Shown here piece by piece: positions 50,661 through 62,596 of a stretch of 64,000 nt of DNA (positions within the stretch are counted from its first letter, which is position 1; each line of letters starts with the position of its first letter). The notes under the pieces were generated by a model. That model was given only the letters and a program-made list of their open reading frames with translations. It had not been told where the DNA came from and made no database searches. Where the stretch lies: positions 24,926,001-24,990,000 of the forward strand of contig CM097885.1 of assembly GCA_044892525.1 (NCBI GenBank), read 5' to 3'. The translations under genes were made by a program, and so were the position numbers. Source of the DNA: Schmidtea polychroa. Its lineage: Eukaryota.

Positions 50661-50769
50661 AGTAGATGGATTGGGCACCGCTGGCACAGGGCACCGCTAG
50701 CACAGTACCCCCCCCCTCCCCCCCGTCGGTAAGATTTTCAAAAATATTCTAAGTCTAAAAGTACATTTT

Positions 50770-51345
50770 TTTTCAAGGTCAAATTTAAACAAAGACATAT
50801 GACTCATCAAGGTCATTGAAACAAAGACCATGAGTCATCCTATGACTCATAAAATTTTTCAAGGTCATTTAAACAAAGACCATGACTCATCCGATGACTC
50901 ATCAAGGACATTTTCAAGGTCATGACTCATAGTATGACTCATATGACCTTGAAAAAAATTTTTCAAGGTCGTATGACTCATCCTATGACTCATCAAGGTC
51001 ATTGAAACAAAGACCATGACTCATAGTATGACTCATATGACCTTGAAAATTTTTTTCAAGGTCATATGACTCATCCAATGACTCATCAAGGGCATTTTCA
51101 AGGTCATATGACTCATAGTATGACTCATTAGACCTTGAAAATTTTTTTCAAGGTCATATGGCTCATCAAGGTCATTCTCAAGGTCATATGACTCATCCGA
51201 TGACTCATCAAATTTTTCAAGGTCATTTTCAAGGTCATCTGAGTCATCCTATGGCTCATCAAGGTCATTTTCAAGGTCACATGACTTATCCAAGGTCATT
51301 CCCAAGGTCATATGAGTCATCGCGATGACTCATCAAGGTCATATT
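50770..51345. promoter_or_regulatory. Subterminal array of TGACTCA, TCAAGGTCA and AACAAAG motifs (left arm; mirrored at ~61948-62480)
   Basis: Roughly 20 TGA(C/G)TCA and a similar number of (T/C)CAAGGTCA, counted by eye. Function is inferred only. Confidence 0.5.
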
Positions 51346-51745
51346 ATTATTTTTAAAAAATATTATTATTTTTATTATTATTTTTAAAAATATTATTATT
51401 TTATTTTTAATTTTTTCAAAGTTCCCGCCAACGAAAATTAATAATCGATAGCTCATTTTAAAGCTCAATCCAAGACCTTTCGAATGAGCTATATAACTTG
51501 TTATTATTATTATTATTATTATTATTATTAATATTATTATTATTATTATTATTAATATTATTATTATTATTATTATTATTATTATTATTATTATTATTAT
51601 TATTATTATTATTATTATTAGTATTAATCTATATACACCGAGTCTATATACTCTGAGTCTATCCGACAAAATATTTTGTCCCCCTATGGGTAATGCTCAC
51701 AAGGGTACTGGTCACGCTCAACAAATCAACAAAACATACATTTAT

Positions 51746-52177
51746 TTAAACAATAAAATAATGTAAAATTAACAAAGGTAAACTAAATATTGATGCACTT
51801 CTATTCGCAGCATTATTGTTAGAAATTGGTAACGTTGAATTGATTTTCAGATATTCTATTGATCCTTTGATTGTTTGAATTTCTCTTAATAATAATTCAA
51901 TCTTTTTTAACAAATAATCATGCTTCTTATCAATAATCTTCATATTCTTTTTATTTTCAGTAATAGAGTTATTGAAAACCTCAATATGATCAATCAATTT
52001 AATTTTTATATTTTGTATATATTCAAATGTTAGTTCATAACTGTTTTCTAAATTCTCCAATCTTTGAGATATTCTTTTTCCTGGATGCTTTGACCATTTT
52101 GGTTTATCGAGAATATATAAAATATCCATCAACTTGGCTGTATTCGGACAAACACATATTGATTTATTAAAAATCAA
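51746..52177 (-). CDS. Unknown small coiled-coil protein with hydrophobic C-terminus (left arm); start uncertain
   Basis: 143-codon non-repetitive frame downstream of polB, identical in both arms. The listed start is TTG. Confidence 0.5.
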   Translation of the reverse strand: MIFNKSICVCPNTAKLMDILYILDKPKWSKHPGKRISQRLENLENSYELTFEYIQNIKIKLIDHIEVFNNSITENKKNMKIIDKKHDYLLKKIELLLREIQTIKGSIEYLKINSTLPISNNNAANRSASIFSLPLLILHYFIV

Positions 52178-52412
52178 AATAGAGCTTTCAAAATGTAACC
52201 ATCAAATGTATAACAATAGCATGACTAGTACCCTTTGCAACCTGTTTAAAGTTTTATTATTATTATTATTATTATTATTATTATTATTATTATTATTATT
52301 ATTATTATTAATATTATTAATATTATTATTATTATTATTATTATTATTATTATTATTATTATTATTATTAATATTAATATTATTAATATTATTATTATTA
52401 TTATTTCATTGA

Positions 52413-59700: not shown

Positions 59701-60491
59701 TGTGTAATTCATCCGAAAAGATGATAGTATACTCCTCAAAGCCGACTTTCAGAAAGTCCATAAGAATCGATCAAGATCTGATTGCGGCACATTTGGAAAA
59801 AGATGTGATTTGTTTAGACAGACCTAGCTACATTGGTCAAACAGTACTAGATCTGTCTAAACTGCGGATGTACCAGCTCCAATATATTGATTTGGAGAAG
59901 TACAGACGCCAATATAAATGTATCATAAATATTATTGCCGGTGATACCGACAGTTTCTTTTTGGAAATAAAAAATTTAAAATTAACAACTTTATTACCTC
60001 AGATGATCTCTGATAATTTATTGGATACGTCAAATTACGATCCAACCCACCCCTTGTATAGTAGGAACCTTGACTCGGTCATCGGGAAGTTTAAAGATGA
60101 GAGCAAGGGATTAGGGTATTCTGAATGGGTTTTCTTACGCCCTAAATGTTATAGTCTTTTAGGTAGTAAGGAAACGGTAAAAGCGAAAGGGGTTAAATTA
60201 CCAGGGACATCAATAAATCACGAATCATATCTAAATTGCTTTCATTCAAATCAGGTGATTTCTGTACCGCAGACTAGAATAGGTACTAGAAATCACCAAC
60301 TTTTTACTTTTAAAAATTCGAAAATTGCCCTAAGTAATAATGATGATAAGCGCGCGTGGCTAGGAAAAAACTTAAGTTACGCATTTGGGCACTATTTAGG
60401 AGTTGACGAATTAAGCGAATATGATGAGGAATTCGGTCCAGCTCCAAGTCCCAGTTTTGACGACAGCGAATGGGACGAAGATCAAATTTAA
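56771..60491 (+). CDS. polB: Inverted duplicate of pPolB lacking the first ~92 codons and the native ATG
   Basis: Protein is identical to the minus copy from NIIKDSNIKK to the stop. The listed start is TTG; the first in-frame ATG is at ~57099 (MVESDL). Confidence 0.9.
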
Positions 60492-61044
60492 ATAGAAAAA
60501 ACTTTATATTTTTGATTTATAAAAACTTGTATAGTGATTTCATGATTTATAAAAAATTGTATAGAAACTTTTATTTAAAAACTTGTACAAAAACCTGTAT
60601 ATTGTATAAAACTTGTATTTATATATACATATTCAATAAAATTTTTAATCAGATTTTTTAAGTATTTGGTGTTTTATTATAATTTTTTTATATTTAATGG
60701 TGATTTTTATATAGTCTGCAGTGAGCATGCAGCTATATGTTTTATATAGTCTGCAGTGGGCATGCAGCTATATCAATGAAATAATAATAATAATAATATT
60801 AATAATATTAATAATAATAATAATAATAATAATAATAATAATAATAATAATAATAATAATAATAATAATAATAATAATATTAATAATATTAATAATAATA
60901 ATAATAATAATAATAATAAATAATAATAATAATAATAATAATAATAATAATAATAATAATAATAATAAAACTTTAAACAGGTTGCAAAGGGTACTAGTCA
61001 TGCTATTGTTATACATTTGATGGTTACATTTTGAAAGCTCTATT

Positions 61045-61476
61045 TTGATTTTTAATAAATCAATATGTGTTTGTCCGAATACAGCCAAGTTGATGGATAT
61101 TTTATATATTCTCGATAAACCAAAATGGTCAAAGCATCCAGGAAAAAGAATATCTCAAAGATTGGAGAATTTAGAAAACAGTTATGAACTAACATTTGAA
61201 TATATACAAAATATAAAAATTAAATTGATTGATCATATTGAGGTTTTCAATAACTCTATTACTGAAAATAAAAAGAATATGAAGATTATTGATAAGAAGC
61301 ATGATTATTTGTTAAAAAAGATTGAATTATTATTAAGAGAAATTCAAACAATCAAAGGATCAATAGAATATCTGAAAATCAATTCAACGTTACCAATTTC
61401 TAACAATAATGCTGCGAATAGAAGTGCATCAATATTTAGTTTACCTTTGTTAATTTTACATTATTTTATTGTTTAA
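61045..61476 (+). CDS. Unknown small coiled-coil protein (right-arm copy)
   Basis: Identical to 51746-52177. An in-frame ATG at 61000 is separated from it by TGA at 61018. Confidence 0.5.
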   Translation: MIFNKSICVCPNTAKLMDILYILDKPKWSKHPGKRISQRLENLENSYELTFEYIQNIKIKLIDHIEVFNNSITENKKNMKIIDKKHDYLLKKIELLLREIQTIKGSIEYLKINSTLPISNNNAANRSASIFSLPLLILHYFIV

Positions 61477-62596
61477 ATAAATGTATGTTTTGTTGATTTG
61501 TTGAGCGTGACCAGTACCCTTGTGAGCATTACCCATAGGGGGACAAAATATTTTGTCGGATAGACTCAGAGTATATAGACTCGGTGTATATAGATTAATA
61601 CTAATAATAATAATAATAATAATAATAATAATAATAATAATAATAATAATAATAATAATAATAATAATAATAATAATAATAATAATAATAATAATAATAA
61701 TAATAATAATAATAATATTAATAATAATAATAATAATAATAATAATAATAATAATAATAATAATAAATAATAATAATTAATAATAATAATAAGTTATATA
61801 GCTCATTCGAAAGGTCTTGGATTGAGCTTTAAAATGAGCTATCGATTATTAATTTTCGTTGGCGGGAACGTTGAAAAAATTAAAAATAAAATAATAATAT
61901 TTTTAAAAATAATAATAAAAATAATAATATTTTTTAAAAATAATAATATGACCTTGATGAGTCATCGCGATGACTCATATGACCTTGGGAATGACCTTGG
62001 ATAAGTCATGTGACCTTGAAAATGACCTTGATGAGTCATAGGATGACTCAGATGACCTTGAAAATGACCTTGAAAAATTTGATGAGTCATCGGATGAGTC
62101 ATATGACCTTGAGAATGACCTTGGTGAGTCATAGGATGAGTCATATGACCTTGAAAAAAATTTTCCAATGTCATATGAGTCATACTATGAGTCATGGTCT
62201 TTGTTTCAATGACCTTGATGAGTCATAGGATGAGTCATATGCCCTTGAAAAATTTTTTCAAGGTCATATGAGTCATACTATGAGTCATATGACCTTGGAA
62301 ATGACCTTGATGAGTCATGGTCTCTGTTTAAATGACCTTGAGAAAATTTTTTTGACCTTGGTGAGTCATATTATGAGTCATATGACCTTGAAAATGTCCT
62401 TGATGAGTCATCGGATGAGTCATGGTCTTTGTTTCAATGACCTTGATGAGTCATATGTCTTTGTTTAAATTTGACCTTGAAAAAATGTACTTTTAGACTT
62501 AGAATATTTTTGAAAATCTTACCGGCGGGGGGGGAGGGGGGGGTACTGTGCTAGCGGTGCCCTGTGCCAGCGGTGCCCAATCCATCTACTGACCTA

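Follow-up and report, generated by a model that had tools for sequence, protein, structure and literature searches.

We describe here a fold-back element of the Polinton (Maverick) type in a 64,000-nucleotide stretch of the Schmidtea polychroa genome (GenBank assembly GCA_044892525.1, contig CM097885.1, positions 24,926,001 to 24,990,000), which is referred to as the window and from whose first letter coordinates without a prefix are counted. The element is 11.9 kb long, is palindromic over its entire length, and interrupts the open reading frame (ORF) of a host retrotransposon. We consider it likely that this element, which is non-autonomous and present once, is a mirror form derived from a Polinton family whose complete members measure ~19 kb, and that it arose by end-copying, with an inverted copy of its left end taking the place of ~11 kb of parental interior.

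The original prediction for this DNA, made from the letters alone, had described the whole element as one palindrome, and self-BLAST together with an alignment of the arms bore this out. The arms span 5,828 bp (50661-56488) and 5,820 bp (56771-62590) and are separated by a 282-bp spacer (56489-56770). The main high-scoring segment pair between the arms has 98.7% identity over 4,992 columns. The inner 3,973 bp (52516-56488 versus 56771-60743) are without any difference, and the arm tips are only 91 to 94% alike because tandem arrays sit there. Differences between the arms are confined to the sequence outside the identical core, where a few substitutions are joined by changes in two ATT tracts, a 35-bp array, and a minisatellite. 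The AG...CT ends were also as predicted, with AGTAGA at the left terminus and TCTACT at the right terminus, and the element is flanked by an exact 6-bp target-site duplication (TSD), GACCTA, for which the chance of a match at both ends is ~1.5e-4. The only long ORFs within the palindrome are two polB frames. As had been anticipated for integrase and capsid, the ORF list and a Pfam scan gave no integrase, ATPase, protease, or capsid ORF within the element. The terminal inverted repeats (TIRs) native to the family are shorter than the 5.8-kb arms: homology with the right ends of parental elements runs out at offset 1512, and the family TIR thus has a length of ~1.5 kb (50661-52172). The parts of the element are as follows.

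50655-50660, plus strand: left copy of the TSD, GACCTA (from self-BLAST and the rejoined flanks).
50661-52172, plus strand: native left TIR of ~1.5 kb, with the AGTAGA tip, poly-C, a variable minisatellite, and an ATT tract.
51746-52201, minus strand: remnant, 151 codons from stop to stop, of an ORF of 168 amino acids (aa), mirrored at 61021-61476.
52173-56488, plus strand: left-end-specific 4.3 kb, present again in inverted orientation and carrying a 4-bp deletion allele.
52768-56763, minus strand: left frame for a DNA polymerase B of the protein-primed type (pPolB), 1,331 aa from an internal ATG, with exonuclease and polymerase motifs and an endonuclease-VII insert.
56489-56767, no strand: parental part of the spacer, the unduplicated 5' end of the left polB, to the end of which 39 other scored copies match.
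56768-56770, no strand: three filler nucleotides where the sequence folds back, a junction that the assembly has nowhere else.
56771-60491, plus strand: right pPolB copy with a truncated N-terminus; the first ATG is at 57099 and gives 1,130 aa.
56771-61049, minus strand: inverted left-end-specific copy in place of ~11 kb of parental interior.
61050-62590, minus strand: right TIR, set apart from the left TIR by minisatellite order, ATT length, and two substitutions in unique sequence.
62591-62596, plus strand: right copy of the TSD, GACCTA (from self-BLAST).

A Polinton origin with fold-back of one end had been proposed, and both were supported by tracing the parental family. The genome assembly searched comprises 781 Mb from one individual and contains 1,305 exact tips and 303 polB 3' ends. 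Four of the five tip-to-tip elements retrieved are 18.7 to 19.4 kb long and have an exact 6-bp TSD and the full gene set. The genome-wide search for a full-length helper with the same TIR was therefore successful: this family is present in hundreds of copies and has integrase, ATPase, protease, and a capsid-like gene. In the one parental copy that was scanned gene by gene for domains (L063), Pox_A32 (ATPase) and Peptidase_C5 (protease) scored above the cut-off, and the integrase domains rve and Chromo scored below it. The capsid-like ORF, found in another parental copy, matches a DJR-like cluster in which 15% of the members carry the family, and is a lead; one parental ORF presumably encodes a minor capsid protein, a label given for its sequence style. 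The parental TIR is ~1.5 kb long, and a complete 168-aa ORF is found in parental elements at their right end alone. These comparisons indicate that the palindrome derives from a young, abundant, and complete ~19-kb Polinton family. Having the same cis ends as this family and lacking the core genes, the element is a non-autonomous Polinton derivative and not an autonomous Polinton.

We note several further features of the parental family. In L063, a TBP-like ORF (PF00352, 1.9e-14, above the cut-off) lies head to head with the ATPase gene, and the same region (L063 4676-5137 and 7200-7520) has a weak Bcl-2-like ORF (0.0033, below the cut-off). At L063 2267-3424, the integrase frame crosses an ATT tract resembling a short intron. 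In four ordinary copies, the left and right TIR minisatellites (window counterpart, 50773-51340) differ strongly in length and order. Either they change very fast once an element has inserted, or replication does not homogenise the TIRs. At C1:242.75 Mb (L021, L022), two Polinton ends lie 2.3 kb apart with identical 40-bp flanks and are a tandem duplication of an element end.

The fold-back junction could be placed to the base. Starting at its left tip, the element matches the parent through 56767; after three added bases it turns back and runs as the reverse complement from 56488 outward. Past 56767, parental sequence continues differently. Read-through of the junction was seen in 1 of 40 scored copies, namely the window element, and a search of the assembly with the junction pattern, allowing up to two mismatches, returned a single match, at odds with the proposed spread as a mobile palindrome. 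In a run search, four of seven small runs hold three of six sampled words of the 100-bp junction stretch, the identity of the words not being shown, and the other three runs hold next to none, a result that is neutral as to whether the junction is real. There is no microhomology at the exact junction, the nearest shared word being 6 nt long and offset. The filler resembles a word 10 nt away, and templated insertions in end joining give such a filler with a similar word nearby. The spacer has the predicted 282 bp but is not neutral DNA; it is the 5' end of the left polB. The ~11 kb of lost interior comprises the sequence upstream of the polB main exon and the protease, capsid, integrase, and ATPase genes.

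In a comparison covering 1,491 bp of polB, 0 differences from the window were seen in the right arm; of 29 other copies, 27 were different, with a mean of 3.4 substitutions. The polB allele common to both arms has 11 exact matches genome-wide, and the 4-bp deletion just inside the TIR is found at three places; in each case, two of these are the arms themselves, and the third carrier of the deletion is not among the 11 polB-allele places. Because near-private alleles and polB identity are common to both arms, the right arm is a copy of the element's own left end, both arms stemming from one molecule. This part of the predicted snap-back genome is thus retained, but the 3-nt filler and the lack of microhomology are unlike a simple snap-back. 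The arm tips are not identical either, but their arrays are hypervariable in every copy. Two other origins were rejected. The near-private alleles found in both arms, together with the TSD, speak against the joining of two unrelated copies, and the single-copy junction and the 1.5-kb parental TIR speak against a subfamily with native 5.8-kb TIRs.

The element lies in the sense frame of a young non-long-terminal-repeat (non-LTR) retrotransposon, the two parts of which are as follows.

48726-50660, plus strand: 5' part of the interrupted host non-LTR retrotransposon ORF, with RVT_1.
62597-63964, plus strand: 3' part of the same ORF, with zf-RVT below the curated cut-off.

When the flanks were rejoined with one TSD copy counted on the left, 645 and 455 codons gave a frame of 1,100 codons. 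Among 136 scored matches, four relatives have a 1,100-codon open frame, at 98 to 99% identity. Because the rejoined frame equals the intact relatives in length, both flanks are the true target site. This bears on the possibility of an assembly artefact, in which a fold-back chimeric read in an ordinary Polinton would have led the assembler back along the left arm and out through the real right TIR. Such an error would agree with a junction seen once, with perfect identity over 3,973 bp, and with an element known from the assembly alone. However, a self-folded read should not alter the 35-bp array from four to two units in the copied part, nor would it account for the true target site on both sides; moreover, other mirrors with different fold points exist, one of them with a verified TSD, and in many other cases the assembly keeps the arms of large palindromes apart. 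We therefore regard an artefact as unlikely. The palindrome is confirmed as real in the assembly and is probably real in the genome.

The two polymerase frames are in opposite orientation, as predicted, but have not diverged in sequence: their shared part is identical, and the right copy is shorter than the left by ~90 N-terminal codons. The catalytic motifs that were located are retained in both open frames. Their assignment to protein-primed PolB is based on a feature match (score, 0.98-0.99) to clusters with DNA_pol_B_2, which is found on 18 to 43% of the members, and Endonuclease_7. A Pfam scan of the frames gave Endonuclease_7 alone, below the cut-off, and a PDB sequence search with polB gave 0 matches. 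A Cys and His pair in both copies suggests, by eye, a vOTU domain like the one described in PMC11161782.

Both copies lack what lies upstream of polB in the parent. Parental loci, 29 of 29, have an open frame that continues for 23 to 26 codons upstream of the first ATG of the element and passes a pyrimidine-rich AG in phase 1, which resembles a splice acceptor and is missing from the window element. A further ~1.7 to 1.9 kb upstream, parental loci have three small units that look like exons and have donor and acceptor motifs to match, and none of these splice-like upstream motifs is found within the window element. The left polB breakpoint is 4 nt upstream of its ATG, and ~20 codons of the main exon are gone. 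Both copies have lost three probable leader exons and the probable promoter region; they are probably not expressed normally, and a usable protein is conceivable. Because neither polB keeps the parental upstream region, the self-replication claimed in the original prediction is not upheld. A polymerase-only replicon resembling a linear plasmid, with polB expressed from the junction region, would be consistent with two open frames with catalytic motifs kept, an in-frame ATG in the left frame, and the match to pPolB clusters; set against the loss of the probable leader exons, promoter region, and ~20 main-exon codons, and against the single copy, we find it highly improbable.

Mirror arrangements were also found elsewhere in this genome. 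There are 874 matches to a marker placed just within the right TIR of the parent, and pairs were counted among the first 100 matches listed, which are all exact and lie on C1 and on C2 up to 139.8 Mb. At a distance of at most 22 kb, five inward-facing pairs were counted versus 0.13 expected, and there were none in the control orientation. The 15.2-kb element at C1:29602228-29617439 is a right-end mirror with the TBP marker mirrored and an exact TSD, ATCATT; its centre is identical to parental sequence in one orientation, and by position it carries integrase and ATPase in both arms. Using 40-bp probes located 2.9 kb inward, we identified a second long right-right mirror at C2:98.81-98.83 Mb. 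By the same probes, one other pair was ambiguous and two pairs keep polB on one side; the latter two are short end-copies, and the idea that all five pairs are palindromes was discarded on this ground. For the TBP marker, the first 100 of 979 matches listed include three mirror pairs versus 0.73 expected (P 0.037): the right-end mirror at C1:29.6 Mb, a pair at C1:1.35 Mb, and a candidate at C1:0.63 Mb. A candidate second divergent polB-polB pair, 8 kb apart, lies at C2:188127417-188135400 (C2:188.13 Mb). Its 801-bp centre is in single orientation and has 87.7% identity to the family, whereas members have 98 to 99%, which makes this pair a candidate for a sister family or a hybrid.

The fifth of the five retrieved tip-to-tip elements is of a different kind. 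At C2:27469112-27487538 (L066/L067), an 18.4-kb whole palindrome has the same Polinton tips, the TSD TTTTAG, and a 724-bp spacer. Its arms are 97.7% alike over 4,968 columns, and its homology to the coding family is confined to the TIR. All ORFs of at least 150 aa in it are of low complexity by ORF inspection, no Pfam scan having been made. For a marker next to its centre, the genome gives 957 matches, and 76 of the first 100 listed form 38 mirror pairs with a spacing of 654 to 987 bp, mostly near 660, 756, and 836. Of 32 pairs of exact tips located on the first 47 Mb, 2 enclose a centre-marker pair, which is central in one of the two. It is evident that this genome has amplified whole palindromes with these tips, seemingly to hundreds of copies, a count that is based on the centre marker, with the ends seen for few copies. 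Older and rearranged pieces of gene-less palindromes, 80 to 92% alike and partly in inverted pairs, lie in the window at 10206-11443 and 15268-24223.

For the window element, we favour the following series of events. A broken or free (resected) right end would pair with the left TIR, as it can because the two are inverted homologues; DNA synthesis would then pass through the TIR into left-specific DNA and polB before disengaging, and the copied strand would be end-joined to the other broken end, leaving the filler. Tracts of other lengths and in the opposite direction would give the right-right mirrors and short end-copies elsewhere. We consider it slightly likelier that this happened in the chromosome after insertion than on a free genome before integration. 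In favour of repair after insertion, a comparison of the two TIRs gave 2 substitutions over 814 bp of unique sequence, which is within the 1 to 3 of ordinary copies, and the inner 3,934 bp have 0 substitutions versus 5.6 expected at the mean private rate (P 0.004). The filler without microhomology and the near-private deletion in both arms were counted on the same side. The TSD is compatible with both timings, as repair after insertion preserves it equally.

Alternatively, the mirror may have formed by template switch or fusion on free Polinton DNA during protein-primed replication, with a helper integrase inserting the palindrome, a scenario that differs in timing alone. The intact tips, the exact TSD, and the amplified gene-less palindromes with the same tips in this genome would agree with it, as would the size of the known mirror elements (11.9 to 18.4 kb, never above parent size). 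In addition, one allele is present in both TIRs and in TIRs of another type and absent from the other examined TIR ends of the family; because both TIRs share this allele, they must have been homogenised at some point. The single-copy junction, a fold without microhomology and with a 3-nt filler, and outer TIRs that have diverged around an identical inner 4 kb argue against a free-DNA origin, which we consider possible but the less probable of the two. It is doubtful, in our judgement, that the process is a general one, in which Polintons would routinely shed mirror genomes during protein-primed replication, helpers would integrate them, and those shedding their genes would become giant palindromic satellite families.

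Several observations weigh against end-copying followed by repair as set out above. Inside the copied left-specific part, an ATT tract differs between the arms (a segment of 178 versus 215 bp), as does the 35-bp array (four versus two units), and these differences require slippage during or after copying. The TBP mirror pair at C1:1346303-1363396 has inverted flanks in ATT tracts and no TSD; hence, a mirror pair need not be a bounded element, and this one is either a larger inverted duplication or an insertion in both arms of another palindrome. For polB, the first 100 of 303 matches listed include one mirror pair versus 0.19 expected, which is not significant, and that pair is the window element itself. 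The age argument is weak: 11 of 29 copies likewise lack private substitutions over the 1,491 bp, and the mutation rate of TIRs may exceed that of polB. Lastly, the junction is documented in one assembly, and the leader exons are predictions from splice-like motifs.

Like known Polintons and Mavericks (PMC8097293, PMC6431247, and PMC11161782), the element has an AG-type TIR tip, a 6-bp TSD, and protein-primed PolB. According to PMC8097293, intact vertebrate Mavericks are 12.7 to 24.6 kb long with TIRs of 46 to 1,447 bp, and their tip motifs are (AG)3 and (AGT)2; the tip of the element is AGTAGA. Unlike vertebrate Mavericks, the element has 5.8-kb arms, has polB twice, and lacks all other core genes. 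The string "palindrom" occurs 0 times in PMC8097293. In Caenorhabditis elegans, excerpts of PMC11414722 describe remnants of polB ends with TIRs and without integrase, and palindromes go unmentioned in these excerpts. Literature searches covering titles and the starts of abstracts, with the founding paper, Repbase, and supplements outside their reach, returned no palindromic or fold-back Polintons, so that long-TIR non-autonomous Polintons may exist. Non-autonomous Polintons were reportedly described by Kapitonov and Jurka in 2006.

In adenovirus double-left-end genomes, poxvirus mirror-image terminal duplications, and palindromic pGKL1 derivatives, one end is replaced by the inverted other end; our literature search returned nothing on these analogues. 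The element resembles them in having kept the replication origins and in needing a helper, but they are free molecules in culture, and the element is integrated, is single-copy, and has a filler junction. Its proposed likeness to a defective-interfering or satellite form is therefore partial: a helper family with the same ends exists, but the element is not amplified, with one junction match in the assembly of one individual. With the gene-less palindromes, which are likewise whole-element palindromes with the same tips and a 6-bp TSD, the element differs in keeping polB, in being single-copy, and in having a parent that can be traced base by base; the gene-less palindromes are amplified and without recognisable genes. 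Since both cis-acting ends are kept, a helper could in principle move the element, which is best read as a dead end or as the first step toward a gene-less palindromic family.

The nearest counterparts among transposons are Mu killer of maize (PMC3440606), in which a partial inverted gene duplication with two copies of one TIR at a single locus could form a hairpin, and the inverted duplications of Ac/Ds (10.1101/2020.01.07.897926), in which end duplication is comparable. Unlike Mu killer, the element has two intact ends with a TSD and a virus-like, self-synthesising parent, and it is known here from DNA alone. Given the Mu killer layout (PMC3440606) and the location in the sense frame of a young retrotransposon, transcription reading through from the host retrotransposon could yield a hairpin RNA of ~5.8 kb. 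Such an RNA might silence Polintons of this family in trans, as Mu killer silences MuDR, which would fit either origin of the mirror. However, the family is young and abundant, and among hundreds of palindromes with the same TIR, one more may add only polB-specific small RNAs. Such a silencing role seems improbable to us.

Taken alone, the element is a broken copy of modest importance; its value is as a traceable and recent case of recurring end-copying. Gene content has been the main basis for inferring how Polintons replicate and where their non-autonomous forms come from. Mirror derivatives whose junctions can be mapped are fossil intermediates: the junctions and the differences between arms can tell template switching during strand displacement from host repair, and such derivatives show that spread requires nothing but the ends. 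Since one genome here combines a young family with several one-off mirrors and with palindromes that have been amplified, the question of origin becomes testable with long-read and small-RNA data that exist already. If Polintons did shed mirror genomes routinely, this genome would hold the whole series from the complete element through one-off mirrors to the ~18-kb gene-less palindrome family. A class of defective-interfering polintoviruses would then be fixed in the germ line of an animal, and its polB-bearing members could brake the family by hairpin RNA.

Two minor observations concern the remainder of the window. An ORF of 750 aa with Cys/His motifs (46473-48725) lies upstream of, and in frame with, the reverse transcriptase ORF at 48726-50660, with one stop between them; judging by the 1,100-aa frames of the relatives, this stop would appear to be conserved. 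Three copies of a dispersed repeat of ~700 bp, 87 to 91% alike and in both orientations, lie at 28160-28901, 37406-38111, and 41687-42405.

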